Made by a program: the position numbers and the translations under genes. 13,528 bases of DNA from Myxococcales bacterium (GTDB lineage: Bacteria; Myxococcota_A; UBA9042). How positions within the stretch are numbered: the stretch's first letter is position 1; every line of letters starts with the position of its first letter. The notes below the pieces were generated by a model that saw only the letters and a list, made by a program, of their open reading frames with translations, was not told the DNA's origin and searched no databases. The stretch is taken from the NCBI GenBank assembly GCA_037441385.1, contig JBBISH010000151.1, positions 1-13,528 of the forward strand, in the 5' to 3' direction. Shown in pieces: positions 1-13,528 of the stretch.

Positions 1-25
1 AGAAACTCTTTCCATGTCGTACACT

Positions 26-155
26 TGGCCCTCACCCCGCCGCTGGCGCGTCTGCCCCTCTCCCAAGGCATTGGGCGAGGGGCAAGGAAATTTTCCTTTA
101 CCCCTCGCCCACTTCAGTGGGAGAGGGCTCGGCCACAGGCCGGGGGTGAGGGCCA
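26..155. repeat. REP-like palindromic doublet (two inverted GC-rich hairpin units around an AT-rich palindromic centre)
   Basis: TGGCCCTCACCCC (26-38) is the perfect reverse complement of GGGGTGAGGGCCA (143-155). Hairpin 53-84 is TGCCCCTCTCCCAA-GGCA-TTGGGCGAGGGGCA and hairpin 102-127 is CCCTCGCCCACT-TC-AGTGGGAGAGGG. The centre is AAGGAAA-T-TTTCCTT (84-98). It resembles the widespread CCCTCACCCC..CCTCTCCC..GGGAGAGGG extragenic repeats. Confidence 0.85.
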
Positions 156-190
156 GAAGCTCGGCGCAAGAGTAAGCAAACGGTATGGCA

Positions 191-231
191 GGCACCGACG
201 GGCCACCGATGGCCCACCGATTGGGCACCGC
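191..231 (+). repeat. Four degenerate 11-bp tandem direct repeats (core CACCG[A/C])
   Basis: CACCGA at 193, 204 and 215 and CACCGC at 226, an exact 11-bp period, in the intergenic DNA upstream of the START gene. Confidence 0.7.
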
Positions 232-300
232 CGATGCGCGCCACCCGCTGGCGCCGAGAGCAGCAATCCCGCGATCCCCGCGGCACAACACGAGACGATC

Positions 301-900
301 ATGGCTATTCATTTCCGTTACTTGCATTGGATGCGCTGGATCGGCAGCGCCGCGTTGGTGCTCGCGGCCAGCACGGGTGTGGCCGCCGGCGATGTCGAAA
401 GTCGGCTTGCGGCGGGCGAGATCGTACTGACCACCCGCAGCGTGGCCGGCTGCGACCTGCCCGAGGCGACCCTGCAGGCGGTCATCGACGCGCCACCCGC
501 CAAGGTCTGGAAGCTCATCGACGACTGCAACAACTACACCCGCACCATGTTGCGCATCGCCGAATCCAAAGAGCTGATGCGCAACGGCACCGCCTCGCAG
601 TGCATGACGGTCGTAGATATGCCCATGCCGATCAGCAACTTGACGTCGGTGTCGGTGGCCGAGTCTGTGCCCGGTCCGCCGCAATGGAAGCGCACCTGGA
701 AGCTGCTGCGCGGCGACTACAAGCGCAACGAAGGCTCGTGGACGCTGACGAATTACGACGCCGAGGGCAAGCGAACGCGCATCGTCTACCGCGTCCTGGC
801 CGATCCCAACGTGTCGGTGCCCAACTACATCATCCGCAAGGCGCAAGAGAGCACCCTGCCCGACATGATCAAGAAAATCCGCACCCTTGCCACTCGGTAG
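301..900 (+). CDS. Exported START/SRPBCC (polyketide cyclase/lipid-transport) domain protein
   Basis: Signal-like N-terminus (MRWIGSAALVLAASTGVAA). SRPBCC motifs VIDAPPAKVWKLIDD, GDYKRNEGSWTL, TRIVYRVLADP and a C-terminal helix. Start is ATG 301 or 331. The ORF-track extension from 25 runs through the repeat and is unlikely to be coding. Confidence 0.8.
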   Translation: MAIHFRYLHWMRWIGSAALVLAASTGVAAGDVESRLAAGEIVLTTRSVAGCDLPEATLQAVIDAPPAKVWKLIDDCNNYTRTMLRIAESKELMRNGTASQCMTVVDMPMPISNLTSVSVAESVPGPPQWKRTWKLLRGDYKRNEGSWTLTNYDAEGKRTRIVYRVLADPNVSVPNYIIRKAQESTLPDMIKKIRTLATR

Positions 901-906
901 TGCCGC

Positions 907-2139
907 ATGTCCCGTCCACAACAGCCCGATTTGTCGGTCCCCCAATTTGCCCAGCACTGGACCCAATTTGCCCAGCACTGGACCCTGGACCCCGACGTCA
1001 CGTTCTTGAACCACGGCTCGTATGGCGCCTGTCCGCGCACGGTACAGCGGGCGCGGGCGGCTTGGCTGGATCGGCTCGAGCGCGAGCCCGTCACCCTGCT
1101 GACCCGCGAACTCGAAGGTCTTTTGGCCACTGTCCGCCATGCGCTGGGCGCCTTCTTGGGCTGTGACGGCGACGATTTGGCCCTGATCAGCAATGCCACG
1201 GAGGGCGTAGGAACGGTTGTTCGTTCGCTAACTTGGCATCCCAATGACGAAGTGCTAGTCATCGATCACGGATATAACGCCTGCAAAAATGCCGCACAAG
1301 TCGAGATCGAGCGTTTTGGCGGTCGTCTGGTGATGGCGGCCGTGCCCTTCCCGCTCGCCGATGCGACCACAGCGATAGAGGCAATTCTTTCGTCGTGTAG
1401 CGATCATACCAAGCTAGCCATCATCGATCACATTGCGAGTCCCACTGCAGTCCTGTTTCCCATCAAGGAAATCGTGCAGAAACTGCAGGCGCGCGGCATC
1501 GATGTACTGGTCGACGGCGCCCACGCCCCCGGGATGGTGCCGCTGCACCTGGACGACCTGGGCGCGGCCTACTACACCGGCAACTGCCACAAGTGGCTGT
1601 GTGCACCCAAAGGCGCTGCTTTTCTTCATGTTCGCCGCGATCGCCAAGACCGCATCCGGCCGCTGGGATTCTCACACGGCGCGAACAGTTCGCGCACCGA
1701 TACCTCGCGTTTTCGGGTGGAATTCGATTGGACGGGCACCCGCGATCCGTCGCCGTGGCTGACCATCCCGGCGGCCATCGAGTCGATGGCCGAGCTGCTG
1801 CCTGGGGGCTGGCCAGCGATCTACCAGCGAAATCACGAACTTGCTCTGCAGGCTCGCGACGTCCTGTGCCAATCCTTGCAGGTCGCCGCGCCCTGTCCGC
1901 CCGAGCTGATGGGCTCCATGGCGGCGGTGATCTTGCCCGCCGGCCAGCAACCCCAGGGCGGCGCAGGCGATTCGGATGCCCTGCACGCCTGGCTGTGGCA
2001 GCGGGGCTTCGATCTGCCGATCATGTCGTGGAATGGGCAGCGAATTCTTCGGGTTTCTTGCCAGCTGTACAACAGCCGCGAACAGGTTGTGCGGCTGGGG
2101 GAGCGGTTGGCGGAGTTGCGGACCCGCCATGAAGGATAG
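907..2139 (+). CDS. Class V PLP-dependent enzyme (isopenicillin N epimerase CefD / Egt2-type C-S lyase / cysteine desulfhydrase-like)
   Basis: Motifs FLNHGSYGACP, NAT, DHIASPT, VDGAH and PLP-lysine GNCHKWLCAPKG, plus FDWTGTRDP and LRVS. It starts 6 nt after the START gene stop, so co-transcription is likely. Confidence 0.9.
   Translation: MSRPQQPDLSVPQFAQHWTQFAQHWTLDPDVTFLNHGSYGACPRTVQRARAAWLDRLEREPVTLLTRELEGLLATVRHALGAFLGCDGDDLALISNATEGVGTVVRSLTWHPNDEVLVIDHGYNACKNAAQVEIERFGGRLVMAAVPFPLADATTAIEAILSSCSDHTKLAIIDHIASPTAVLFPIKEIVQKLQARGIDVLVDGAHAPGMVPLHLDDLGAAYYTGNCHKWLCAPKGAAFLHVRRDRQDRIRPLGFSHGANSSRTDTSRFRVEFDWTGTRDPSPWLTIPAAIESMAELLPGGWPAIYQRNHELALQARDVLCQSLQVAAPCPPELMGSMAAVILPAGQQPQGGAGDSDALHAWLWQRGFDLPIMSWNGQRILRVSCQLYNSREQVVRLGERLAELRTRHEG
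941..985 (+). repeat. Perfect 21-bp in-frame tandem duplication (QFAQHWT x2)
   Basis: CCCAATTTGCCCAGCACTGGA at 941-961 and again at 962-982, followed by CCC. Confidence 0.95.
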
Positions 2140-2151
2140 CTGCGATTTTGG

Positions 2152-3876
2152 CTACTTGCCCACAACCTTGGCCAGCGTCGTCAGCAGGTCCGCGGCGTCG
2201 TCCAAATTGGGCACACTGGCATCGTAGACCAGCAGGTCGGCGGCGAGCAGCGCCATGTGCTTGTCGTGCAACTGCTTTTGCGCCGCCAGGGTCGCCAGGG
2301 CGTCGCTCTGCTTGCCGGCCTCGGCCTGGGCCACGGCTTGGATGAGGCTCTGGCCATCGCCCAGCAGCAGCCAGGCACGGTGCACCGCCGGGTTGGTGAA
2401 GTAGGCCGTGCCGGCGTCGGGAATCTGAACCAGACCGGGCACTTGCACGGGCACGCTGAACTGCTCGGCAGCGCCGCCCTTGGACAGCGTGTAGCCGTAG
2501 GTCACCGTCGCCAGGGTCAGGTTCACCAGGTCAGACGGCTGGGTGTTGGCCGGAGCGATCAGGCGCGCCATCACCAAGCCGTTGCGCTTGCTGGCAAACA
2601 GGGTCGGCATCGCCACCGGGTCAGTGCCCACGCCGGGATCCTCAGGATTGCCCGGATCGGGGTTGCCCGGGTCGGTCGGCCCCACGGCCTCCATTGGGCC
2701 GGTGATGGTCACTTCGCCGTCCTTCTCGACCCACTTGAACCCATAGATCTCGGCCACTTTCCAGCCGTTCGCCAACTTGAATTGCAGGGTCAGCTTCTCG
2801 GCGACCGGCAGCAGCATCGTCTCCAGATCCTGGATGAACACCTCTTTGGCGGCCTGCGCGTTGGGCAGGAACCAGGCCGTACCGTTGCCCTTTTGCGCAA
2901 TGGCGTTCATCAGCGACGGCGAGAAATCCAAGCCCACGCCCACCGACGACACGCTGCAGCCGCCGGCCTTCGCCTCGGTCACCTGGCCCAAGATGCTGTC
3001 GAAGCCGGTCGTGCCGACCGTGGGCAAGCCGTCAGAAAGGAACAGGATTCGCTTCTGCTCAAAACCGGCCGGCGTCGCCTGGCATAGCGCGCTGCCGTCG
3101 CCCAGGGCTTGGAAGATGTTGGTGCCGCCGTCGGCGGCCAGGGCGTCGATCGCCTCGTGCAAGGCCTGGACATTGCTAGAATCGATCACGGCGGGCGGGA
3201 ACGGGACGCTCACCGTGCTCGAGAAACTGACCAGTCCCAGGCGCGTGCCCTTGGGCAACTGGTCGGCCAGGGCGTGCAACCCCGCTTTGACAAAGGCAAG
3301 TTTGTCCCCCGCCATCGAGCCCGAGCGGTCGATGACCACCGTCAGGCTCAGGGTCGTCTGCACATCGGCCAAAGTCTTGCCCGAATTCAGGCCAATCTGC
3401 AGCACCGCGCTGGGTTGGGCACCCGGCTCGACCATCACGCCGGCCAGGGCGTGCAGCGTCACGCTGCGGTCCTTCAGGGCGGGCGGCAGCACTGTGTCGT
3501 GCTCGTTCAGCCAGCCTTCGATGGTCATGTCGCCCGGCTTGGGTAGCAGAGCCGCGGCCAGCTTCTGGCGGAAAAACGCGATGTCTTGCGCCCCGCCCGG
3601 CTTGAGGCCAATGCCCTGGTCAGCGTTGCCCGCGCCGGGGGTCTGCGGCACGCCGCCGGTCGAGGTGCCAGCATCGGCCGACATGCTGCCGCCGCCGGTC
3701 TTGCCGTTCGAGGTGTCCGCGCTACTGCTGGTATCCTTGCTGGCGAACGAGCCACTGCCATTCGTCGACGCCGTGCTCGCCATCGGCGCAAAGTCACTCG
3801 CGCAACCTGCCAAGCTCAGCCCGAGCAGCGCCGCCACGCCTGCCCACTTGGTCCTGCCCAACCCGATCCTGCTCAT
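2152..3876 (-). CDS. VWA-domain lipoprotein (YfbK-like), 574 aa
   Basis: ATG 3876 is preceded by RBS AGGAGG. Basic n-region, hydrophobic h-region and lipobox LAGC, then a Ser/Gly/Thr linker. Intact MIDAS: VIDRSGSM, GGTN, LFLSDG, plus VGVGLDF. Confidence 0.9.
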   Translation of the reverse strand: MSRIGLGRTKWAGVAALLGLSLAGCASDFAPMASTASTNGSGSFASKDTSSSADTSNGKTGGGSMSADAGTSTGGVPQTPGAGNADQGIGLKPGGAQDIAFFRQKLAAALLPKPGDMTIEGWLNEHDTVLPPALKDRSVTLHALAGVMVEPGAQPSAVLQIGLNSGKTLADVQTTLSLTVVIDRSGSMAGDKLAFVKAGLHALADQLPKGTRLGLVSFSSTVSVPFPPAVIDSSNVQALHEAIDALAADGGTNIFQALGDGSALCQATPAGFEQKRILFLSDGLPTVGTTGFDSILGQVTEAKAGGCSVSSVGVGLDFSPSLMNAIAQKGNGTAWFLPNAQAAKEVFIQDLETMLLPVAEKLTLQFKLANGWKVAEIYGFKWVEKDGEVTITGPMEAVGPTDPGNPDPGNPEDPGVGTDPVAMPTLFASKRNGLVMARLIAPANTQPSDLVNLTLATVTYGYTLSKGGAAEQFSVPVQVPGLVQIPDAGTAYFTNPAVHRAWLLLGDGQSLIQAVAQAEAGKQSDALATLAAQKQLHDKHMALLAADLLVYDASVPNLDDAADLLTTLAKVVGK

Positions 3877-3940
3877 GGTGCCCTCCTGCCGCCGTCGCGG
3901 CTGCCTGTGGTGCGGCGTGCTGCCGATGCCAAAAGCGCAT

Positions 3941-3956
3941 TGCACGGGCCGTGCCA
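3941..3956 (-). promoter_or_regulatory. Candidate sigma54 (-24/-12) promoter of the VWA lipoprotein gene
   Basis: Minus strand reads TGGCACG-GCCC-GTGCA against consensus TGGCACG-N4-TTGCW: one mismatch, correct GG/GC spacing, 65 nt upstream of the ATG. Confidence 0.7.
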
Positions 3957-4050
3957 GGTGGACACACCACGCGGAAGTATGGATAATATCAGGAAACATT
4001 TGGCTGAACGGCCCAGTCGCCTCACGACGCGAGTGCGGCACTTCTCAGCA

Positions 4051-4067
4051 TGTCGATTTTTTCGACA
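4051..4067. promoter_or_regulatory. Palindrome TGTCGA-N5-TCGACA, candidate enhancer-binding-protein upstream activating sequence
   Basis: Perfect 6-bp arms (TGT-N11-ACA), centred about 130 bp upstream of the predicted sigma54 start site. Confidence 0.45.
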
Positions 4068-4077
4068 CTACTCCGCC

Positions 4078-4800
4078 TCAGGACTGGCCGGCCGGCGAAA
4101 AGCGGTAGCCAACCCCGCGCACCGTCACAAAGTGCCGCGGCACCTCGGGATCGGGCTCCAGCTTGCCGCGCAGCCGCATGACGAAGTTGTCGACCGTGCG
4201 CAACGTCGCCTGCTCGCTGCCCCACACGTCGCGCAGCAGATCTTCGCGCGTCAGGACCCGTTCCGGCCGGTCGACAAAGTGTAGCAACAGCGAGAATTCG
4301 CGCGCCGTCATCGGCACTTCGCTGGTTGCGCGCCGCACGCGGTGGCCCACACGGTCGATGTAGATATCGCCAAACGCGGGCTGCTCCGCCACCAAGGTGG
4401 TCGACGAGGCGTGGATACGCCGCGATCGCCGCAGCGACGTCCGCACCCGCGCTCGCAACTCGGCAAGACCAAATGGCTTGGTGATGTAGTCGTCGGCGCC
4501 CAGCTCCAGCCCCAGCACCTTGTCGGCCTCGTCGGCGCGGGCGGTGAGCAGCAGCACCGGCAAGTCGGGCTGCTCGCGGCGCAGCGCCCGCAACAGCTCA
4601 AAACCATTGCGCCCTGGCAGCATCACGTCCAGCAGGACCAGGTCCACCGTCAGCGGCCCGCGCAGCACCGCCTCGGCGGCGTCCGCATCGGCACACAGCA
4701 GGGTCTGATAGCCGTCCAGGCTCAGGTTCAAGTCCAGACCTTCGCGAATGGCGGCGTCGTCTTCCACGATCAGGATGCGCGCGTTGGGCTGGTCGTTCAC
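4078..4800 (-). CDS. OmpR/PhoB-family response regulator
   Basis: Receiver domain ILIVEDD, LLDVMLP (phospho-Asp), LLTAR, GADDYITKPF. Winged-helix domain REFSLL..LTREDLL..VW..RTVDNFVMRLRGKLE..TVRGVGYRF. GTG start. Confidence 0.97.
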   Translation of the reverse strand: MNDQPNARILIVEDDAAIREGLDLNLSLDGYQTLLCADADAAEAVLRGPLTVDLVLLDVMLPGRNGFELLRALRREQPDLPVLLLTARADEADKVLGLELGADDYITKPFGLAELRARVRTSLRRSRRIHASSTTLVAEQPAFGDIYIDRVGHRVRRATSEVPMTAREFSLLLHFVDRPERVLTREDLLRDVWGSEQATLRTVDNFVMRLRGKLEPDPEVPRHFVTVRGVGYRFSPAGQS

Positions 4801-4878
4801 GGTGGCACGTCCCTTGTTGGTGGCGTTGCGCCGCGGTTTGTGCCCGACCTTTCCGCAAACTGCAAGGTGCGGGGGCGC

Positions 4879-5787
4879 TCAGCCCGGCAGAGCCGGCAGT
4901 TCGACCACAAAGGTGCTGCCGCGCCCGGGCGCACTGTCCACGCGAATTCGCCCGCCGTGAGCCGACACCACGTGCTTGGCAAAGGCCAGGCCCAGACCCG
5001 AGCCTTCGGTCGCGCGCGACAAACGATCGTCCACGCGATAGAACATCTCGAAAATACGGCGATGTTCGTGCAAGGCGATCCCAGGCCCGTTGTCGTGGAC
5101 CGCGATCTGCACCCCGCGCCGGTGGCGGGCCGGGCTGGCACCGACCTTGACCGAGATCCGCTTGTCCGACCCCGTGTATTTGAAGGCATTGTCCAGCAAG
5201 TTCTGGACCACGTCTTGCAGCGCCTCGGCGTCCGCAGCCACCAGTGGCAGCCCTTGAGCCACTTCCACGGTCAGCGCCACACCGGGCTGATCTAGGCGCG
5301 GCTCAAAGCGCGTCGCCACCGCCTGGACCAGATCGGCCACATTGGTCGGGGCCAATTGATATTTGATCTTGCCGGCTTCTAGCCTAGCCAGCTCCAGCAG
5401 GCGGTCGATCATGGCCGAGAGGCGTTCGGTCTCTTGCCCCAGCAGCGCCAGCACCCGTTCGCGGCGTTCGGGATCCTCCAAGCGCTGCTCGCGCAGCGTC
5501 TCGACGAACATGCGGATCGACGTCAGGGGCGTCCGGAAGTCGTGGCTGACCTTGCTCAAGAAGTCGGCCTGCAGCCTAGATAAATCCGCCGACCGACGCA
5601 GCGCCACCACCAGCCAAGCCGCGCCGGCCAGCAGCTCGACACAAAAGACCAAGATCAGCACACCAAAGGCGACGTCAAAATTTTCGCGGCGGTAGTAGAG
5701 CACCAAGATGCCCACCACGCTCAGCACCACCGCCGGCGTGAGCAGGAAGGCCGAGGCCAAGTAGGCGGTCTGCCGCACGCGCCGCAT
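4879..5787 (-). CDS. Sensor histidine kinase (HisKA + HATPase_c) with two TM helices and almost no periplasmic loop
   Basis: H-box VSHDFRTPLTSI, N-box NLLDNAFKY, G1 DNGPGI, F-box IFEMFYR, G2 GSGLGLA. Two hydrophobic segments are separated by YYRRENFD. Confidence 0.95.
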   Translation of the reverse strand: MRRVRQTAYLASAFLLTPAVVLSVVGILVLYYRRENFDVAFGVLILVFCVELLAGAAWLVVALRRSADLSRLQADFLSKVSHDFRTPLTSIRMFVETLREQRLEDPERRERVLALLGQETERLSAMIDRLLELARLEAGKIKYQLAPTNVADLVQAVATRFEPRLDQPGVALTVEVAQGLPLVAADAEALQDVVQNLLDNAFKYTGSDKRISVKVGASPARHRRGVQIAVHDNGPGIALHEHRRIFEMFYRVDDRLSRATEGSGLGLAFAKHVVSAHGGRIRVDSAPGRGSTFVVELPALPG

Positions 5788-5790
5788 GAT

Positions 5791-6498
5791 TTAGGCCCCG
5801 CCGCGGTCGCGCTGGCGGAAGGCCAGGACTTCGCCCGCCACCCGCTTGATTTGCTTGATGTTCGCAATGCGCGACGGCGTCCCATCGGTGCGCGGCCGGC
5901 TGGCGATGGTCGTGTCGGCCACTCCGTAGCCGCGCCGTAGCGCCTGGGCGATCAGCTCGAAACTGAAGAAAAACGTGTCAGCGCCGATGCGTTGCAGGCC
6001 AATTTCGTCGCGCGCCAGCGCCACTGGGAACAAGTAGGTACCTTCCAGCGCAAAATCCACGCCGATCAGGGCGCGCATGTAGACGCGGAAACCCCGCGAG
6101 ATGAAAGTGCGCAGCCAGTTGTTCGGCCGGTTGCCGTACGTCGAGAGCACGATCGGCGCCTGCGCCAAAGCCGGCAGCATCTTGGCCAGCTCGGCGGCGG
6201 GGATCTGGCCGTCGGCGGCGAGCATGCAAAAATAGTCCTTGCTGGACGCGGCGATCCCGGTGCGCAGCCCAGCGCCCATGCCACGGTTGCGATCGTGCTG
6301 CAGCAGGCGGATGCGCGGTTCGGCCTGGGCCGCCTGGCGCACCAACTCAGCGGAGCGATCGGTCGAACCGTCGTCCACCACCAGGATCTCCCAGTCCGTC
6401 AGCGCACTTTGGCAGTAGGCCACCGCCTCGTCCAAGGTGGCCAGCAGGCTGCGCTCTTCGTTGAGGCACAGGTAGATGAGCGAGAGCGACGGATTCAT
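5791..6498 (-). CDS. GT2 family glycosyltransferase (DPM1/polyprenol-phosphate glycosyltransferase-like), 235 aa
   Basis: Begins MNPSLSLIYLCLNEE, with motifs EILVVDDGSTDRS, HDRNRGMGAGLRTG and ADGQ. The start overlaps the upstream stop (ATGA, 6495-6498) and the stop is 3 nt from the kinase start. Confidence 0.9.
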   Translation of the reverse strand: MNPSLSLIYLCLNEERSLLATLDEAVAYCQSALTDWEILVVDDGSTDRSAELVRQAAQAEPRIRLLQHDRNRGMGAGLRTGIAASSKDYFCMLAADGQIPAAELAKMLPALAQAPIVLSTYGNRPNNWLRTFISRGFRVYMRALIGVDFALEGTYLFPVALARDEIGLQRIGADTFFFSFELIAQALRRGYGVADTTIASRPRTDGTPSRIANIKQIKRVAGEVLAFRQRDRGGA

Positions 6499-9400
6499 GG
6501 TGCGATGGCCTTGCCCTGAGTGCCAGGGATCACCGCGCCGCCCAGGGCGCCTGTGCCCAAACACCGCAGCGAGCCGTCGGCCATCCGCGCGCACACCTGA
6601 TTGCCGGCCGAGGCGAGTTCCACCACGGCCAAGTCGTTGAAGATGGCGATGGGCTGGCTGCCATCGCCGCTGGGATTGCCAAAATCCGCGGCGGCGGCGT
6701 TGCTGGTGCGGCACCAGACTTGGCCCGTGTCGCCGCGCAAAGCGCACAGGTGGTTGCCGCCAGCGGCCACGTCGGTGTAGGGCGCGCTGGGGCCCAAGGG
6801 CTTGACCGCAAAGGCTGCTGCCGCGGGACTGCCCAAAAGCGGGTTGTCGCCCATGCCCCAACAAACGGCAGGTTGGCCGCCGCCGGCCGCCGCGCACGCG
6901 ACCCCAACGCCCACCCAGATCTGCTGATAAATCCCAGGCAGATCTACCAAGTTGGGCGCTCCCGGCTTGGGCACGCCTTTGCCGCCGACCCATGTCGTCG
7001 CCGCGCTGCCCCAACAGAAGACCTTGCCGGCCACGATTCCGCAGGTGGTGCTGGGGCCGCTGGCCAGAGCCGTAACCCCAGACAATCCGGGCACTTCCTG
7101 GGGTACGGCCGAGTCGACGGCCCCGCTGCCCTGGCCTAGCTGCCCTTGACCCGCCGCGCCCCAGCAATAAGTACGGGCCACCCCGGCCTTGTCCATGCCG
7201 CCGGCGCAAGCGTGGGCAGTCCCGGCGACAAGCTGCGTGGCCTCGATCGGCAGGGTCACCAGGCTGGGCGCGGGCGTGTTGCCAAGCGCTGCGCCGGTTT
7301 GGCCGTGGTCGTTGCGGCCCCAGCACCAAACGCCCAGCGTGGTGTCCACGGCACAGGTAAAGCCGTCGCCCACAGCGACTTGCGCGTAGCTGCCCGTGCC
7401 CACCTGGGTGGCCGTGGGCGTGCTGGCCAGGCCCGTGGCAAGCAACTGACCGTCGCCGTTGCTGCCCCAGCACCACAGGCTGTGATCCGGTCGCAGCGCG
7501 CAGCTGTGGCTGGGGCCCGCGGCCAAGGCGGCGGCGAACGGCTCCCAGCATTGATTCTGCGCGCAGACGCCCACGCCGCTGTTGCACGCCGCGCCCGGCA
7601 CCTTGTCGGCCAGGCCACAGCCCAAGAAGGGCGTGCAGATGCCGACTTGGCACTGCCCCGGCGCTGGGCAAGCCAGCGGCTGGGTGCCCGGCACGCAGCT
7701 GCCCGTCGCACTGCAAACGTCGCCGCCAAAGCAGATGTCGCCGTCGTCGCATGGGCTGCCGGGCTTGGCGGGGCTGTGTACACAACCCTGCGCGGGGTCG
7801 CAACTATCCAAGGTACAAGGCAAAGCGTCGTTGCAGCTGTTGGCACTGCCGCCGACACACGCCCCGCCGCTGCAGGTCTTGGCAAAGGTGCACGGCGCGC
7901 CGTCGTCGCACGGACCATCGACCTGGGTCTGAGTTTGGCAGCCTGAGCTGCTGCACCATGCCACCTGGCAGCCAGAAGCGACACAGCTTGTCGGTTTACT
8001 GACGCACGCGACGGGGTCGCAGGTCGTCTCGCCGGTCACCGCGATTCGCCAGACGGTGCCGCCACTTGGCTCGGACTCTTTGCCGCCGACCAGCCAGAAA
8101 TTGCCTTTTCCGTCGGGCGCAATGGCGGTGGCCAGGTCGTCTGGCGCGTGCACCACCGCCTGCAGTGACTCCAAGTTCGGCCCCAGGACTTCGTGGCGGC
8201 GCAGGCTGCCGCCCTGCACGGTCATGCCTTCGGTGAGCCAGTTGCCCCCCTGCCAAAGGGCTGCCAGCACCATGTAGGGCTGCAAGCCCACGTTTTCGGG
8301 TTGTTTCAGTACCAACCCAGTGGGGTCCAGCAAGGCAGCCGTGCCGGTCCCTTTGCCGGCGGCGAACTTTTGCCCCATCGCCAGCACCGGACCGCCGGGG
8401 CGCGCGGCGAGCGCCGTGATCAGGCTCAGTTGCGTCTGGGCATAGGTGACCACGGTGGCGCTGCCCTTTTGCAGGTCCACTCGCGCCAACTGAGCGGCGT
8501 CGGGAATCGCGAGCGGGTACCACACCTCGCCGCCCACCAACTCGCTGGTCCACGGCTGCTGCGGAACGTCGCTGACCGGGATCCACCGCGGCGCCTCGCC
8601 CGTCAGGCCGAGCAACACCGCCATGGCAAACCCCTTGCCATCCGGCGCCTTGCCGCTGCAGAGCGCCACAATTCGCTGGTCGGGCAAGCGCCGGGCCGAG
8701 TTGCAGTGCTGGGTGCCGGGAGGCAACAGGCCGGCTGGCAGGGCCTGTGGGGCCGGCTTGGCGGGGGCCAAACGCAAGACCTTGGCGGCGGGCACATCGC
8801 CGTGACTCTCTAGAAATACAACGAGTTCTGTGTCATTCAGCGGCGCCGCCGCAGTGATCGAGGCGTCTTCGCTCAGCGCCCACGACGGCCACACGCCGTC
8901 CAGGTCGACGATGCTGGTCGGGCTCCAAGCCAGCGTGTGACCGGGCACTGGCTGGATCAGGCCAAAGAACAAGGCATTGCCTAGCTTCTGCGTGCCGAGC
9001 AGGCTGGCCCCGATGCACGACCCGCCCTTGCAGGTGTCCGGACCCGTGCACGCCGAGCCGTCGTCGCAGATCGTGCCGTCGAGCGGGCTGTGGCCGCACT
9101 GGCCCGCCACGCACAGCTCCTGGTCGCACGGGTTGCCGTCGGCCGGGCACTCCAGCGCCTTGGTTCCGCAAACGTGCGCTTCGCAGATGGCGATCTGGCA
9201 CTCGCCAGGCTTGGGGCAGTCGTCCGGGCTGTTGCAGCCGCCTACCGCATCGCCGTCGGCGTCGCCCGCAGCATCGCTGTCCACAGCGCCGATGTCGGCG
9301 TCGGGACTGCCGTCGCTCCCCACGGTGTCCACGCTGGCGTCGCTACCGCTGGTGTCGACCAAGACCGCATCGTGACCGGTCGAATCGCCGTGCTCGGCCC

Positions 9401-9521
9401 GCCACTTGGCCAAGTCGGGGCCCACGTCGCCCAGGCCACAGGCCGTTGTCGACCCAACCAAGACGAGCCAGACCGTCCAGCAAATCAAGCTGTTACAGAG
9501 CCTATCCAAGCTTCCCCTCAT
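6495..9521 (-). CDS. Large Cys-rich probable lipoprotein with C-terminal RCC1/BLIP-II-like repeat propeller
   Basis: Hydrophobic leader ending TTAC (Cys28) and an Asp/Ala/Gly linker. Two blocks of CDDGxxCT-type repeats (about 9015-9236 and 7548-8021) flank a mostly Cys-poor domain. RCC1 repeats include AGPSHSCAL..LWCWGSNGDGQL, VWCWGRNDHGQTG and TYCWGAAGQGQLG. Confidence 0.88.
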   Translation of the reverse strand: MRGSLDRLCNSLICWTVWLVLVGSTTACGLGDVGPDLAKWRAEHGDSTGHDAVLVDTSGSDASVDTVGSDGSPDADIGAVDSDAAGDADGDAVGGCNSPDDCPKPGECQIAICEAHVCGTKALECPADGNPCDQELCVAGQCGHSPLDGTICDDGSACTGPDTCKGGSCIGASLLGTQKLGNALFFGLIQPVPGHTLAWSPTSIVDLDGVWPSWALSEDASITAAAPLNDTELVVFLESHGDVPAAKVLRLAPAKPAPQALPAGLLPPGTQHCNSARRLPDQRIVALCSGKAPDGKGFAMAVLLGLTGEAPRWIPVSDVPQQPWTSELVGGEVWYPLAIPDAAQLARVDLQKGSATVVTYAQTQLSLITALAARPGGPVLAMGQKFAAGKGTGTAALLDPTGLVLKQPENVGLQPYMVLAALWQGGNWLTEGMTVQGGSLRRHEVLGPNLESLQAVVHAPDDLATAIAPDGKGNFWLVGGKESEPSGGTVWRIAVTGETTCDPVACVSKPTSCVASGCQVAWCSSSGCQTQTQVDGPCDDGAPCTFAKTCSGGACVGGSANSCNDALPCTLDSCDPAQGCVHSPAKPGSPCDDGDICFGGDVCSATGSCVPGTQPLACPAPGQCQVGICTPFLGCGLADKVPGAACNSGVGVCAQNQCWEPFAAALAAGPSHSCALRPDHSLWCWGSNGDGQLLATGLASTPTATQVGTGSYAQVAVGDGFTCAVDTTLGVWCWGRNDHGQTGAALGNTPAPSLVTLPIEATQLVAGTAHACAGGMDKAGVARTYCWGAAGQGQLGQGSGAVDSAVPQEVPGLSGVTALASGPSTTCGIVAGKVFCWGSAATTWVGGKGVPKPGAPNLVDLPGIYQQIWVGVGVACAAAGGGQPAVCWGMGDNPLLGSPAAAAFAVKPLGPSAPYTDVAAGGNHLCALRGDTGQVWCRTSNAAAADFGNPSGDGSQPIAIFNDLAVVELASAGNQVCARMADGSLRCLGTGALGGAVIPGTQGKAIAP

Positions 9522-9571
9522 CCCGCCCCGCGTGCCGCGTCACTCAAGCATGGTGCGCTTGCCCGGCAAAG

Positions 9572-9587
9572 CGCAAGTGCCTTGCCA
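9572..9587 (-). promoter_or_regulatory. Candidate sigma54 (-24/-12) promoter for the RCC1-lipoprotein/GT2/HK/RR operon
   Basis: Minus strand reads TGGCAAG-GCAC-TTGCG with GG-N10-GC spacing and TTGC intact, about 50 nt upstream of ATG 9521. Confidence 0.5.
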
Positions 9588-9610
9588 TCGACCGGTGCGC
9601 TGGGCACAGT
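9582..9610 (+). promoter_or_regulatory. Candidate sigma70 promoter for the methyltransferase gene
   Basis: TTGCCA (9582-9587), 17-nt spacer, CACAGT (9605-9610). The ATG follows 8 nt later with no SD sequence. Confidence 0.35.
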
Positions 9611-9618
9611 GTGGCGCC

Positions 9619-10686
9619 ATGGCTACGCCCGCACTGCCCCTGCCGCACGCCCTTTCGCACCTGCTGCCCCTGTGGCTGGCCCGCAGCTCCGGTGCCGCGC
9701 CAAGATCGTTCTTGCACACGCTGCACCTTGGCCTGCAGGCCCGACAAAGTCTGGCAGGCCTGGACGACACGGATTGCTGCCGCCTCTTGGACGGCGAGGA
9801 CGGTCGGCACTACGTGGATCTGTACGCCAACTGCTTGGTGGTGCAGGACTATTTGGACCTCGATCCCCACGATGTGGCCGCGGTAACGGCCGGCCTAGCC
9901 GAGCTAGCGCAAGCCGTGGAGCCGCTGATTGCGGCTCTGCAACCGCGCGCCGCTTGGCTCAAGATTCGCCCGCGCCAGACCAACACGCTGGTGGATCCGG
10001 TGCGCTTGGCTCCGGCCGAGCCGGCGACCGGCAGCTGTGATCTGCCCTTGGTGGCGCACGAAAATGGCGTGGCGTTTCAGATTCGCCCAGACCAGGGCCT
10101 AGCCACCGGCCTGTACCTGGACCAGCGCAGCAACCGCCGCTGGCTGTTGCGGCAGAAGCCAGGTCTGCGCGTGCTGAATACCTTTTGCTATTCTGCGGGG
10201 TTTTCGATTGCCGCCGCCCGTGCCGGCGCCGCCACGGTCAGCGTGGACATCGCCGAGCCCGCTCTGCAGTGGGCGCGTGACAACTTCGCCTTGAATCACT
10301 TGGCCCTACAGAGCGAAAACGGCGAGCGGTACCACGACCTGATCCGCGGCGACAGCTTGGAGTGGCTCGGGAAATTCGCCAAGCGCGGTCAGCTGTTCGA
10401 CGTGATCATCCTGGACCCGCCCAGCCACGCGACCCATCGCGGCAAACGCTGGACGGCGGTGCGCGACTACCCCGAACTGGTCGAGCTGGCTTGCCGCTGC
10501 CTTGCGCCCGGTGGTCGGCTGCTGGGCTGCATCAACGCCGCCACCGTGGAGCCCGCCCGACTGCACCAGTGGCTGCGGCAAGGCGCGCAGGCGGCGGGGC
10601 GGCAGGTAACTCAGCTTACGCCCATGCGAAGTCAAGTAGACTATCCGTCTAGTCGAATGAAATCGGCGCTGCTTTCGGTTGCGTGA
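9619..10686 (+). CDS. Class I SAM-dependent rRNA methyltransferase, RlmI/RlmK (COG1092) family, probably stand-alone RlmK-like
   Basis: Motifs RLLDGEDG, VDLY, ENGVAF, TGLYLDQRSNR, VLNTFCYSAGFS, SVDIA, WARDNFALN and FDVIILDPPS. ATG 9619 was chosen because the ORF-track start at 9406 overlaps the divergent gene. Confidence 0.88.
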   Translation: MATPALPLPHALSHLLPLWLARSSGAAPRSFLHTLHLGLQARQSLAGLDDTDCCRLLDGEDGRHYVDLYANCLVVQDYLDLDPHDVAAVTAGLAELAQAVEPLIAALQPRAAWLKIRPRQTNTLVDPVRLAPAEPATGSCDLPLVAHENGVAFQIRPDQGLATGLYLDQRSNRRWLLRQKPGLRVLNTFCYSAGFSIAAARAGAATVSVDIAEPALQWARDNFALNHLALQSENGERYHDLIRGDSLEWLGKFAKRGQLFDVIILDPPSHATHRGKRWTAVRDYPELVELACRCLAPGGRLLGCINAATVEPARLHQWLRQGAQAAGRQVTQLTPMRSQVDYPSSRMKSALLSVA

Positions 10687-10756
10687 TCCCAGTCGAGGTT
10701 TGGCGCACAGCCGTGTAGACTGCCGCCGCCGCGGCCGCCTGCCGCCCTGAGCAGCG

Positions 10757-11320
10757 ATGATTCAACGCCACCGCAACCTGATCCCGCACATTCATCCCAC
10801 CGCCTGGGTGCACCCCGCCGCCGTCGTCATCGGCGAGGTCGAATTGGGCCCCTATGTCACGGTTTGGCCCGGCGCCATCCTGCGCGGCGACTGCGGCGCG
10901 ATCCGCGTAGGCGCCCACACCAACATCCAAGACGGCGCGCTGGTGCACACCACCTTCGACGTCAGCCAGACCATCCTGGGCGAGCGAATCACCGTTGGCC
11001 ACGGCGCGGTGCTGCACGGATGCATCGTAGAGGATGACTGTCTGGTAGGTATGCATTCAACGTTGCTGGACAATTGCCGAATCGGCCATCACAGCATCGT
11101 CGGCGCCGGCGCAGTGGTCGGGGTGGGCAAGCAGTTCGAGCCGCGCTCGCTCATCATGGGCAACCCAGCGCAGCGCATCCGCGAGTGCAACGACAAGAAT
11201 TTGCAGCAGATTGACTACGGCTGGAACGCCTACAAGGGCTACCGCGAACCCTTCGTGAACGGCGAGGTGCAGGATCTGCCGGACGATTGGCACTATTGGC
11301 CAAGCGAAGACATCGGGTAA
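10757..11320 (+). CDS. Gamma carbonic anhydrase family protein (YrdA/CaiE/PaaY-like left-handed beta-helix)
   Basis: Hexapeptide repeats, LRGD, NIQDG, three metal-ligand His in ALVH and GHGAVLHGC, then GNPA..R. Confidence 0.95.
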   Translation: MIQRHRNLIPHIHPTAWVHPAAVVIGEVELGPYVTVWPGAILRGDCGAIRVGAHTNIQDGALVHTTFDVSQTILGERITVGHGAVLHGCIVEDDCLVGMHSTLLDNCRIGHHSIVGAGAVVGVGKQFEPRSLIMGNPAQRIRECNDKNLQQIDYGWNAYKGYREPFVNGEVQDLPDDWHYWPSEDIG

Positions 11321-11346
11321 GGCTAGATGTTGCAAGGTACCACTTG

Positions 11347-12522
11347 ATGTTTTCGGATCGAACAAGCTGGGATCGAACGGTCAATCGCCTGTCTCTGGCT
11401 GTCAAAGACCGCCGCCAGCGCGGTCTGGAGGTGGTCGATCTCGGCGAGTCGAACCCGACGCGCGTGGGACTGTCGCCCGTCTGGCAACAGCTGGGGCCGC
11501 TGCTCGATTGCCCGCAGGCGCAGAACTACGCCCCCGAGCCGTTTGGCCTGTGGTCGGCGCGTCAGTGTGTGGCCCACTACCTGGGCAACCGCGTGCCGGC
11601 CGAGCAAGTCGTGCTCAGCGCGTCGACAAGCGAAGCCTACGCGTGGATCCTGCAGATCCTGTGCAATCCGGGCGACGAAGTGCTGGTGCCGGCGCCCTCG
11701 TATCCTCTGCTCGAGTACCTGGCAGCGCTCGCGGCCGTGCAACTTCGCACCTATCCAACGCTTTGGGTGGGGGGCGACTGGCACATCGACCTGGCCAGCC
11801 TGGCCGCGGCCATCGGTCCGCGCACCCGCGCCGTGGTGGTGGTCAGCCCCAACAATCCCACCGGCGCTGTAGCGACCCCAAGTGAAGTCGCAGCGTTGCA
11901 GGGTCTCTGCGCCCAACATGGTCTTGCCCTGGCCATCGACGAAGTTTTTGCCGAGTGGACTGGCGCGCAAGACGGCCAGACCCCGGCGAGCCCCCCGACC
12001 TTGGCCGGCCTGGAGGACTGCCTGACGCTGGTCATGTCCGGTCTGTCCAAAGTGCTGCTGCTGCCGCAGCTCAAGCTGGCCTGGACCGCGGTGAGCGGCC
12101 CACCAAGGTTGGTACAAGAGGCCCTTCATCGCCTTGAAATTGTGGCCGATACTTCCCTGTCGCTGGCCACGCCGGTGCAGTGGGCGCTGCCGGAACTGCT
12201 GACACGGCGCAGCGAGTGGCAGGCGCCCATGCGGCAGCGCTTGCTCCAGAACCGCACGATCTTGGACCGCCTCTGCGCCCATTCGCTGGCGACCGCCCTG
12301 CCCACCCAAGGCGGCTGGAGCGCCGTGCTGCGGATTCCTGCCACCGAGCCCGACGACGAGCGGGCCTTGCGCTGGCTCGAGCGGCACGGGGTGTTGGTGC
12401 AGCCGGGCTATTTCTTTGATTTTGCGGGCAATGGCTGGATCGTCCTTGGCTTGTTGCAGCCGCCTGAGCGCTTTGAACCCGCGGTGGCAGCGCTGCTGGA
12501 CGACCTTCACACATCCGCGTGA
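11347..12522 (+). CDS. Class I/II (fold type I) PLP-dependent aminotransferase-like protein, 391 aa
   Basis: Motifs NPGDEVLVPAPSYP, SPNNPTG, DEVF, SGLSK (PLP Lys) and GVLVQPGYFF. Start at ATG 11347 (MFSDRTSW). Confidence 0.9.
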   Translation: MFSDRTSWDRTVNRLSLAVKDRRQRGLEVVDLGESNPTRVGLSPVWQQLGPLLDCPQAQNYAPEPFGLWSARQCVAHYLGNRVPAEQVVLSASTSEAYAWILQILCNPGDEVLVPAPSYPLLEYLAALAAVQLRTYPTLWVGGDWHIDLASLAAAIGPRTRAVVVVSPNNPTGAVATPSEVAALQGLCAQHGLALAIDEVFAEWTGAQDGQTPASPPTLAGLEDCLTLVMSGLSKVLLLPQLKLAWTAVSGPPRLVQEALHRLEIVADTSLSLATPVQWALPELLTRRSEWQAPMRQRLLQNRTILDRLCAHSLATALPTQGGWSAVLRIPATEPDDERALRWLERHGVLVQPGYFFDFAGNGWIVLGLLQPPERFEPAVAALLDDLHTSA

Positions 12523-12622
12523 CGCAGCCGCCCACCTGCCTGCGGGGCTCCTGTTCGCCGGGCCATTTTCGTAGTAACATCGCCGTCATCTATGGGGCCC
12601 ACCGGGACCTTGGGGAGGAAAC

Positions 12623-13528
12623 GTGAGGATTCTTCTTGCCTTCGCCGCATGCGTCGGCCTGCTCAGCGGCTGCGGGGCCAGCACCCTGCAACAATTCGTC
12701 GCCGAATCCCCGGCAGGCTACCCGGCGCGCTGCCAGAAGGCGGCCGCGGACCACGACCGAGCGCTCCGCGAACTCGACTACTTGCAGCCCGGCTTCCGGA
12801 CGCTGATTTGGACTGGCGAGGCCGCGCCCAACGCCGACGGCGTGCTGACCGAAGACAAGCTGATGCGCGAGTTGCGCGAAGGCGTGCTGAAGTCGGTGTT
12901 CGTGCAAGCGCGCGGGGGCATCGGCAAGACCGAGTTTGGCAAAGCCGTCTTTGCCGAGATCTGCTCGGCCCAGCCAACCTTTACCATCGACTTCAAGGAC
13001 ATCGCCAAGGCCGGCGGCAGTCAGAGCGCCATCACCGCGGCGATGCGCGGCGTGCTGCAGTCGCCCGACGACAAGGACGCCGCCTTCAAGGAGCTTCTGG
13101 CCACCTCGCGCTTCACCTTGATCGTCGATTCGCTGGACGAAGTCGCACCGGACCGCCGCGCGCCGTCGCTGCAGGCCCTGACCGAGATGCGCAAACAATA
13201 TCCGGGCATGCAGCTGCTGCTCCTGGGCCGCCCGTCGATCTACGACCAGTACTACGGCATGCAGGACCTGGACGCCGTCCTGGAGATCGCCCCGCTGGAC
13301 TGCAGTCGGGCCCGCTCGGCGCTGCTGCACACGGCGGCCGACAAGCCCGAGCGCGAACGCATGACCGCGTTTGTGTCGACTTGGCGCCTGGACCGCCAGG
13401 CGGTGTTCGGCCAGCAGTGCTATTACCCCTTCTTGTCCACCTACCGCGACTTGCAGGCCATCAAGCGGCTGTCGGCCGCCTTTGACGCGACCCGCGATCG
13501 CGGCGGCCAGCAGCACAGCTTGGCCGAG
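12623..13528 (+). CDS. Partial (3'-truncated) lipoprotein carrying a NACHT/STAND-type P-loop NTPase domain
   Basis: RBS GGGGAGG (12612-12618) then GTG. The frame stays open for 302 codons to the window end with GC3-rich codons. Translation: MRILLAFAACVGLLSGC...VFVQARGGIGKTEFGK...FTLIVDSLDEV...LLLLGRPS...LEIAPL. Not present in the ORF track. Confidence 0.88.
   Translation, partial: MRILLAFAACVGLLSGCGASTLQQFVAESPAGYPARCQKAAADHDRALRELDYLQPGFRTLIWTGEAAPNADGVLTEDKLMRELREGVLKSVFVQARGGIGKTEFGKAVFAEICSAQPTFTIDFKDIAKAGGSQSAITAAMRGVLQSPDDKDAAFKELLATSRFTLIVDSLDEVAPDRRAPSLQALTEMRKQYPGMQLLLLGRPSIYDQYYGMQDLDAVLEIAPLDCSRARSALLHTAADKPERERMTAFVSTWRLDRQAVFGQQCYYPFLSTYRDLQAIKRLSAAFDATRDRGGQQHSLAE

Follow-up and report, generated by a model that had tools for sequence, protein, structure and literature searches.

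STAND and NACHT NTPases, a group that extends from the animal and plant NLRs to the Avs and bNACHT proteins of bacteria, are regarded as switches of the cytoplasm, and the conventional teaching is that Gram-negative envelope processes proceed without hydrolyzing nucleoside triphosphate (NTP) locally. The gene analyzed here lies at the 3' end of a stretch of 13,528 nucleotides from a Myxococcales bacterium (GenBank assembly GCA_037441385.1, contig JBBISH010000151.1, positions 1 to 13,528 of the forward strand; the whole stretch is referred to as the window), and encodes a NACHT-type P-loop NTPase that begins with a lipoprotein signal peptide. For the family to which it belongs, we computed the signal and its conservation, the pattern of cysteines, the homology to NACHT proteins and the fold, and the operon. 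Our preferred reading, which we hold at a probability of roughly 0.55, is that of a Sec-exported, lipid-anchored NACHT-type (STAND) P-loop NTPase that serves as a nucleotide switch in the envelope, or as an assembly factor, for the exported proteins encoded with it. The core of a preliminary description of the window, in which a lipoprotein signal on a NACHT/STAND NTPase was taken to define a previously undescribed class of exported, membrane-anchored modules, held throughout.

The animal NLRs (NOD2, NLRC4, NLRP3 and NAIP5) have the same domain order as the present family and provide the best structural matches to both models discussed below. They share with it the Walker A motif, a Walker B motif of the D-x-x-D-E type, the sensor-1 arginine and an l-e-i-x-P-L motif. 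The animal proteins are cytoplasmic and carry an effector and a leucine-rich-repeat sensor, whereas the family members appear to be exported, contain about ten conserved cysteines, lack both of these domains and have not kept the winged-helix histidine. P-loop ATPases of a non-cytosolic compartment are represented by the torsins, AAA+ ATPases of the oxidizing lumen of the endoplasmic reticulum with functionally important cysteines, which depend on partner proteins and receive ATP via a membrane antiporter; as eukaryotic, classical AAA+ proteins without a lipid anchor, they offer an analogy only.

The bNACHT and Avs proteins are likewise bacterial NACHT-clade STAND NTPases, but the present family has neither a PADLOC match nor a defense-island context. 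The available text of the bNACHT preprint (Kibby et al., bioRxiv 10.1101/2022.07.19.500537) states that transmembrane (TM) regions may sense membrane or periplasmic signals, and does not contain the terms "signal peptide" or "secreted". The sole earlier mention of a periplasmic NACHT domain in the portions of the literature searched concerns the second target of the diversity-generating retroelement DGR-3 in Thiohalocapsa PB-PSB1, whose NACHT and C-type lectin domains are predicted to be periplasmic from TM topology (Dore et al. 2024, PMC10907252). As described in a single sentence of the accessible text, this target is one TM-anchored protein with a hypervariable lectin sensor, whereas the present family consists of many lipoproteins with conserved cysteine pairs, no sensor and a conserved envelope operon. 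A similar principle is reported in the available part of a study on Pseudomonas aeruginosa PA2072, where a periplasmic CHASE4 domain binds and hydrolyzes extracellular ATP and the oligomeric state switches the output (PMC12625894); however, the CHASE4 fold contains no P-loop, and PA2072 is a TM receptor with a cytoplasmic cyclic di-GMP output. The NACHT domain of PMC4452313, which is fused to a SecA-like protein, was set aside as irrelevant. In the literature searched, which did not extend to the supplements of PMC10907252 and of the bNACHT preprint, we found no NACHT family described as lipoproteins or secreted proteins. What is new here is (i) a known module in a new compartment, (ii) its minimal architecture and (iii) its genomic partnership.

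Gene start, lipoprotein signal and conserved cysteines

The final open reading frame (ORF) of the GC-rich window (GC range 0.61–0.70) runs from a GTG codon at 12623–12625 off the end at 13528, and comprises 302 codons of an incomplete gene. This GTG is the earliest start codon following the in-frame stop, and the sequence GGAGG at 12614–12618 lies four bases 5' of it. The G+C content at third codon positions (GC3) is 0.86 in the NTPase frame as opposed to 0.48 and 0.66 in the overlapping frames, and since such a codon bias is that of a true gene, the frame was judged to be coding. Two orthologs, at 92% (L001) and 87% (L002) identity, were identified. The closer one (L001:3696–5219) gives a full length of 507 residues and is preceded, as in the window, by methyltransferase, hexapeptide transferase and aminotransferase genes. 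A leader of about 60 bases, the Shine-Dalgarno sequence and the GTG are near-invariant in both orthologs while the 3' end of the upstream aminotransferase gene diverges, which supports the GTG as the start. The leader at 12565–12622 matched nothing in Rfam, was not predicted to fold stably (z +0.85), and contains neither a sigma-70-like site nor a terminator; it may represent a non-sigma-70 promoter or an operator. The gene and its parts are arranged as follows.

12565..12622, + strand: conserved leader with the Shine-Dalgarno sequence GGAGG (12614–12618), near-identical in the window, L001 and L002
12623..13528, + strand: first 302 codons of the gene for the lipoprotein NACHT-type NTPase, assigned from ORF, translation and GC3; the ortholog has 507 residues
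12623..12673, + strand: predicted signal peptide (residues 1–16) and lipobox Cys17, with Arg2, a hydrophobic core and L-S-G-C
12674..12892, + strand: N-terminal extension of the mature protein (residues 18–90) with invariant Cys37 and with Glu77, delimited by model and alignment
12893..13297, + strand: nucleotide-binding domain (residues 91–225), assigned from conserved motifs, Pfam NACHT and Foldseek
13298..13528, + strand: helical domain 1 (residues 226–302), cut by the window end, with the Cys227/Cys266 pair and T-Y-R-D at 273–276

A phmmer search of 1.84 billion representative sequences returned 91 relatives at E ≤ 1e-3, of which 73 reach E ≤ 1e-10 and 14 reach E ≤ 1e-30. Their length is mostly 500–560 residues; relatives of more than 889 residues, that is, fused forms, were not found, a negative that counts as weak evidence. 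The 44 near-length homologs listed are all unnamed or annotated as "hypothetical protein", and one of them carries a precomputed Pfam domain, AAA_22. Residue conservation was counted in an alignment of 65 family representatives, and genomes were scanned for loci with a 10-sequence family alignment. The scan yielded 41 loci, all in metagenome-assembled genomes, several of which hold at least two loci each. According to the record titles, 29 loci belong to Myxococcales or Myxococcota, two to Deltaproteobacteria, four to Proteobacteria or Pseudomonadota and six to "uncultured Enterobacteriaceae". The last six (L008, L015, L021, L026, L031 and L032) are third-party annotation assemblies with Myxococcota-type genes in the same synteny, and these titles are probably wrong.

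A lipobox follows the pattern [LVI][ASTVI][GAS]-C and closes the h-region, its cysteine lying some 15–35 residues from the start. In the window protein, a signal of 16 residues comprises Arg2 and a 12-residue hydrophobic stretch and ends in L-S-G-C, with Cys17 encoded at 12671–12673; these features, and the NTPase motifs described below, lie in the translation of the window exactly where the preliminary description had placed them. The window protein and 48 of the 65 representatives satisfy the strict PROSITE-style pattern, 39 of the 65 have the cysteine at position 15–35 from the annotated start, and hydropathy ahead of the Cys column, taken as the best 12-residue value of each member, has a median of 2.34. 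Cysteine occupies the lipobox column in 60/65 representatives and in all 42 genome-encoded copies that cover the N-terminus, and the residue at −1 is Gly, Ala or Ser in 61/65. Instead of the lipobox, the remaining five representatives have SPase-I-like peptides or else one hydrophobic anchor at the N-terminus. Tat export was set aside, as the window signal has no twin-arginine motif.

The residue at +2 of the 60 representatives with the lipobox cysteine is Gly in 44, Ser in seven, Ala in five, Thr in two, and Asn and Leu in one each, and never Lys or Asp. As reported in the available text on Myxococcus xanthus, inner-membrane lipoproteins are marked by a Lys at +2 (PMC3222651); because neither Lys nor Asp occurs at this position in the family, the outer membrane is the likelier destination, and the lipid-anchored protein would most likely reside there. 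Past the lipobox column, 61 of the 65 members lack any 19-residue window with a hydropathy of 1.6 or more, and the best such window in the 507-residue ortholog reaches 1.0, so that a later TM helix is not predicted.

Apart from Cys17, ten cysteines are conserved. Cys37, Cys114, Cys353, Cys368, Cys418 and Cys446 are invariant among the 65 representatives, Cys227 and Cys266 are present in 59, and Cys455 and Cys499 in 63. The less conserved positions are lost in pairs: Cys227 and Cys266 are jointly absent in six of six representatives and in one genome-encoded copy (L026), and never singly, and the same applies to Cys455 and Cys499 in two of two cases. Paired losses of this kind are the behavior of disulfide partners, and we infer that five disulfides, with Cys37–Cys114, Cys227–Cys266, Cys353–Cys368, Cys418–Cys446 and Cys455–Cys499 as the candidate pairs, stabilize the mature protein. 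The most distant relatives (P0088 and P0090), which are ordinary NACHT proteins without a signal, have cysteine at none of the nine positions up to Cys455; both align a cysteine in the Cys499 column.

Three long relatives (P0053, P0065 and P0074; 706–850 residues) have a different membrane attachment, with a signal-less N-terminal domain of about 250–300 residues, a single TM helix, and the module with the full set of cysteines, which places the NACHT module across the membrane from a cytoplasmic domain. One-pass TM forms also include P0092 and P0093, and the N-terminal domain spans about 250–320 residues across the five. This cytoplasmic domain matches no Pfam family, and an ESM Atlas query with the P0065 domain gave nothing usable. 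The one-pass forms may act in the manner of receptors, with the NACHT module on the outside passing a signal to the cytoplasm.

From the window sequence taken alone, the protein could also be a STAND NTPase of the ordinary, cytoplasmic type, whose seeming signal is a chance hydrophobic N-terminus or the result of a mis-called start. The family data render this exceedingly improbable: the lipobox cysteine is retained as described above, the leader, Shine-Dalgarno sequence and GTG are kept in the orthologs, the cysteine pairs are lost jointly, and the cytoplasmic NACHT relatives lack the cysteine set. The next in-frame methionine is residue 80, and a start at this position would remove conserved and confidently folded residues including the invariant Cys37. 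Altogether, six independent lines point to export, and the location is well supported by comparative sequence evidence, with Cys17 as the predicted site of lipidation. The claims made for the window protein in this respect are thus borne out in the family: the homologs retain the signal and do not initiate at an internal methionine, the residues that connect Cys17 to the P-loop are conserved and are modeled with confidence, no TM helix returns the NTPase to the cytoplasm, and the extracytoplasmic location is backed by the paired cysteine losses, the TM-anchored variants and the exported operon partners described below.

NACHT module and nucleotide-binding residues

The nucleotide-binding domain contains a Walker A motif A-R-G-G-I-G-K-T (residues 96–103; 12908–12931), a Walker B motif L-I-V-D-S-L-D-E (residues 166–173; 13118–13141), a sensor-1 motif L-L-L-L-G-R (residues 198–203; 13214–13231, with the Arg203 codon at 13229–13231) and the motif L-E-I-A-P-L (residues 220–225; 13280–13297). 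Gly99, Gly101, Lys102, Cys114 and Arg203 are invariant in 65/65 representatives, and Asp169 is found in 64, Asp or Glu at 172 in 60 and Glu173 in 59. Pro204 is kept in 58, and at positions 221–225 Glu occurs in 38, Ile or Leu in 59, Pro224 in 36 and Leu225 in 51. Outside of these motifs, Glu77 is found in 60, Arg275 in 63 and Asp276 in 60. The catalytic residues (Lys102, Arg203, Asp169 and Glu173) are intact in every genome-encoded copy.

The relationship to NACHT proteins was examined by profile comparisons. The most distant relatives mentioned above score 44.4 (P0088) and 32.5 bits (P0090) on Pfam NACHT, and two of the TM-anchored forms, P0065 and P0074, score 28.5 and 30.2 bits, above the Pfam cut-off of 26.7. 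Using hhalign, the family profile aligns with P0088 at a probability of 97% (E 1.1e-10) over 220 columns that span the pre-P-loop strand, Walker A, Walker B, sensor 1 and the T-Y-R-[DQ] motif. In this alignment, residues 48–90 pair with the pre-P-loop part of P0088, and T-Y-R-D pairs with T-Y-R-Q. Other Pfam matches among the 65 members are to AAA_16 (22 members) and NPHP3_N (eight members).

Models were calculated with AlphaFold2 for the 302-residue window fragment (predicted local distance difference test score, pLDDT, 93.8; predicted template modeling score, pTM, 0.88) and for the 507-residue ortholog (pLDDT 91.9, pTM 0.88). The confidently modeled elements of the N-terminal extension are a helix (residues 33–49) and two strands (57–63 and 74–76). 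In the 507-residue model, the nucleotide-binding domain is followed by helical domain 1, a winged helix and helical domain 2 in the NACHT arrangement. A Foldseek search of the PDB with the fragment ranked NOD2, NLRC4 and NLRP3 at the top, with query-based template modeling scores (TMq) of 0.52–0.57, and placed FtsH, p97, Cdc6 and ORC lower (0.33–0.43). A classical AAA+ protein of the FtsH or p97 type was rejected as an assignment, as FtsH, p97 and the proteasomal ATPases reach a TMq of only 0.33–0.41 against 0.52–0.57 for the NLRs. With the 507-residue model, the top 50 rows are nearly all animal NLR NACHT modules aligned over about 385–540 columns, the exceptions being one plant NRC3 and one AAA+ entry. 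The best TMq (0.53–0.54) is obtained with open, active NLRC4, and closed ADP-bound forms give 0.34–0.38, a preference that is a property of the model only. Look-alikes in the ESM Atlas fall into nSTAND4, NACHT, nSTAND3 and NPHP3_N clusters. As judged by these models, the NACHT fold is well supported.

Sequence searches against other collections were less informative. The family profile gave only local P-loop matches in the PDB (best ArsA, E 2.8e-4), an NCBIfam scan of the window protein returned noise only, and PADLOC gave no Avs or bNACHT match for the window protein, the sole hit being a local one to PDC-M37B (E 0.0013). Neither an effector nor a repeat-sensor domain was found in the 507-residue ortholog, which is filled by the signal, the extension of about 70 residues and the NACHT module, and in which Pfam finds no other domain. 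The profile and structure searches thus assign the P-loop to NACHT and not to a non-STAND family, as the preliminary description had proposed; its term "NLR-like" applies to the NACHT module and does not extend to the whole architecture, which includes no repeat sensor and no effector domain.

In canonical NACHT proteins, a winged-helix histidine contacts the bound ADP. We located the corresponding column via the F-x-H-R-S-F-Q-E motif of P0088 and P0090, both of which have His. Among the 65 members, Asn is found in 35, Asp in eight, Ser in seven, His in five and Ala in four. The genome-encoded copies fall into two clades (see below), with His in most clade-A copies and Asp in clade B.

Operon partners and genomic neighborhoods

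The partners of the NTPase gene (c0) were defined by a tblastn survey, ORF clustering and translations. The product of c1 has a signal peptide, a proline-rich stretch (42 Pro in residues 35–125) and a domain of about 480 residues; its relationship to Leptospira ImpL63 is indicated by an NCBIfam match (NF047543, E 2.4e-28) that falls far short of the equivalog cut-off. The c6 product is a lipoprotein of about 290 residues with an invariant lipobox cysteine and four further invariant cysteines. The c2 product, a lipoprotein of about 900–940 residues, combines cysteine-rich N-terminal repeats, with 23 invariant cysteines, and an alpha/beta-hydrolase half in which the motifs H-G-T-G-G and G-H-S-Q-G are invariant and which matches the VolA/Pla-1 family TIGR03502 locally (E 3.7e-11; 41.9 bits versus a cut-off of 383.9). 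None of c1, c2 and c6 has sequence relatives in the PDB. Finally, c3 encodes 1,070–1,076 residues with TLC (NTT), HEAT and cyclic nucleotide monophosphate (cNMP)-binding domains, the TLC match in L002 scoring 28.9 bits against a cut-off of 21.

Two of these partners have described counterparts. VolA of Vibrio cholerae is, in the available text, a lysophospholipase that is a surface lipoprotein and is expressed together with an outer-membrane transporter (PMC3656444); c2 is likewise a lipoprotein with a predicted serine hydrolase, but its match is local only and its N-terminal half is cysteine-rich. The c3 product has the architecture of the NTT-HEAT-cNBD fusions, which the accessible part of their description reports as widespread and uncharacterized (PMC5381601). 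Neither of these two texts, so far as available, describes a NACHT-type lipoprotein partner (PMC3656444 and PMC5381601).

The c1 gene follows c0 in 15 loci, c0-c1-c6-c2 is complete on one strand in 12, and c3 follows c2 in seven of the 11 loci with sequence past c2. In L001, the intergenic gaps are 110, 2, 41 and 96 bases. An IQ-TREE phylogeny of the 41 genome-encoded c0 copies separates two clades with split support of 100/100. Clade A (18 rows, including L001 and L002) comprises 13 of the 14 copies labeled as c1-adjacent, and the fourteenth label (L031) is an artifact, the ORF filter having dropped the clade-A copy of that locus. Clade B (23 rows) consists of copies that form the upstream member of a tandem pair with a clade-A copy, or that lie beside genes for a PPC-domain lipoprotein and TldD/PmbA proteins.

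Tandem paralogs are found in L021, L030, L034, L037 and L041 (and L031), in the order clade B (Asp), clade A (His) and c1, and both members of a pair retain all catalytic residues. To judge from this arrangement, the tandem clade-B/clade-A pairs are reminiscent of paired NLRs. In another set of clade-B loci (L014, L016, L019, L020, L025, L028 and related ones), the opposite strand carries, upstream, genes for protein kinase-like, PP2C and VWA products together with two for small cNMP-binding proteins; downstream, the gene for the PPC-domain lipoprotein is accompanied by one or two TldD/PmbA genes, an SRPBCC gene and one resembling acyl-CoA synthetase. A pair of GH13 genes, of which one is GlgB-like and includes CBM48 and the other belongs to the alpha-amylase family, is located upstream on the strand of the NTPase gene in 10 of the 18 clade-A loci, and also beside clade-B copies in L023 and L026. 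Loci with this pair include L006, L008, L010, L012, L013, L031 and L041, and do not include the window or L001.

These neighborhoods bear on two further explanations. The first is an envelope anti-phage or conflict NLR, similar to Avs or bNACHT, that senses phage at the cell surface. The NACHT fold and the several paralogs per genome would suit such a role, and bacterial NACHT proteins defend against phage, as stated in the available text of the bNACHT preprint (bioRxiv 10.1101/2022.07.19.500537). We regard it as decidedly unlikely: an Avs or bNACHT match in PADLOC, an effector and a sensor domain are all missing, the conserved neighbors are envelope and metabolic genes of a housekeeping type (aminotransferase and methyltransferase) rather than those of defense islands, and no family relative was present in collections of 72,556 plasmid and 50,697 phage records.

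The second explanation starts from the organism. Myxobacteria exchange outer-membrane lipoproteins, and a probable outer-membrane lipoprotein of Myxococcota could be a cargo that acts in another cell, be it kin reached by outer-membrane exchange or prey, where it would meet nucleotide in the recipient cytoplasm. This is very improbable, given that neither a toxin domain nor an immunity-like small gene downstream was found, that disulfide-type cysteine pairs suit an oxidizing compartment, that the operon partners are envelope proteins, and that the long TM-anchored forms are not transferable.

Elsewhere in the window, 6495–9521 on the minus strand encodes a protein of 1,008 residues with RCC1 repeats and a Dicty_CTDC repeat. 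This protein has a lipobox-type signal and 57 cysteines (5.65%), and would be another exported cysteine-rich lipoprotein in the window. Its ORF overlaps in a different frame with that at 5791–7803, also on the minus strand. The latter ORF (670 residues) has a GT2 domain at residues 441–569, within its portion downstream of 6495, and because of this position the true glycosyltransferase gene is probably short (about 5791–6490), the remainder being a shadow of the RCC1 gene. The window contains no tRNA.

A candidate nucleotide switch in the envelope

In the preferred reading, the protein would be exported by Sec, and cleavage at Cys17 and acylation would leave a mature protein of about 490 residues tethered in the periplasm, with its cysteine pairs oxidized in the envelope. 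Being a bare NACHT module whose hydrolysis residues are intact, it would cycle between nucleotide states, and this cycling would control the assembly or activity of c1, c6 and c2, foremost that of the VolA/Pla-1-like hydrolase c2. The nucleotide could be provided by the c3 NTT-HEAT-cNMP transporter, or by ATP entering the periplasm from outside. That nucleotide is bound and hydrolyzed within the envelope, where this nucleotide comes from and that the protein acts on the hydrolase module are inferences. Because VolA pairs a lysophospholipase with an outer-membrane transporter, a gated lipid-scavenging or prey-lipid module is a reasonable picture. The preliminary description had assumed that the periplasm lacks an ATP pool, a premise that is too strong: according to the available text of PMC7432876, periplasmic ATP has been measured in E. 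coli at micromolar levels. The same text states that the route of ATP over the E. coli inner membrane is unknown, given the lack of an ATP/ADP translocase (PMC7432876).

A number of observations weigh against this reading. First, the window protein scores 17.8 bits on Pfam NACHT (profile positions 3–164 of 167), below the cut-off, and only 19 of the 65 members match this family at E ≤ 0.01, the best at 1.8e-10. Second, the ortholog of the window protein has Phe in the winged-helix His column, which is unusual for a nucleotide-latched NACHT protein. Third, raw cysteine content was rejected as an argument for export, as the value of 2.0% lies within the range of the neighboring genes (0.3–2.7%); because the overall content is not unusual, the cysteine argument rests on conservation and paired loss. 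Fourth, the window ends inside the NTPase gene, and its partners are deduced from the orthologs at 92% and 87% identity. Fifth, among the clade-A copies without c1, L003, L009 and L037 lie at contig ends, and L004 and L011 are truly partnerless. Finally, c3 is not directly after c2 in four of 11 loci, small cNMP-binding genes but no full-length NTT-HEAT-cNBD gene were found beside clade-B copies, and the transport direction and substrate of NTT-HEAT-cNBD proteins are given as unknown in the available text of PMC5381601.

Some of these points are shared by an explanation in which the protein is exported but nucleotide-independent, acting as a scaffold or as a binder of a phosphate-bearing envelope ligand (the head group of a phospholipid or lysophospholipid, polyphosphate or a lipid A phosphate) that passes substrate to the hydrolase without an NTP cycle. 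It draws on the same evidence for location as the preferred reading, and is consistent with the lipid-handling hydrolase in the operon, with the absence of c3 from four of 11 loci, and with the replacement of the winged-helix His by Asn, Asp or Ser in 50 of the 65 members and by Phe in the ortholog. The invariance of Lys102 and Arg203 and the retention of the Walker B acids (64/65 and 59/65) would be unexpected for a pure binder, and we consider this explanation unlikely, though one to be taken seriously.

The envelope switch can also be extended to a self-supplied machine, in which c3 would export cytoplasmic ATP in exchange for ADP under cyclic-nucleotide control, this ATP would feed a disulfide-locked NACHT NTPase anchored in the outer membrane, and its ATP-driven oligomers would switch on or assemble the phospholipase–ImpL63-like module, for example upon meeting prey or damaged cells. 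This extension is speculative and rather unlikely as a whole; if true, it would constitute the first P-loop STAND switch outside the cytoplasm together with a dedicated route of ATP to the periplasm.

For the preferred reading of an exported, lipid-anchored NACHT-type NTPase, the significance lies in the compartment. The lipoprotein NACHT family makes the assumption that no NTP is hydrolyzed in the envelope directly testable. If NTP is bound and hydrolyzed there, the range of compartments in which NLR-type switches operate would be extended, a concrete candidate would be at hand for a route of ATP into the periplasm (a question raised in the available text of PMC7432876), and the uncultured freshwater and groundwater Myxococcota would possess a regulated module for lipid scavenging or predation.

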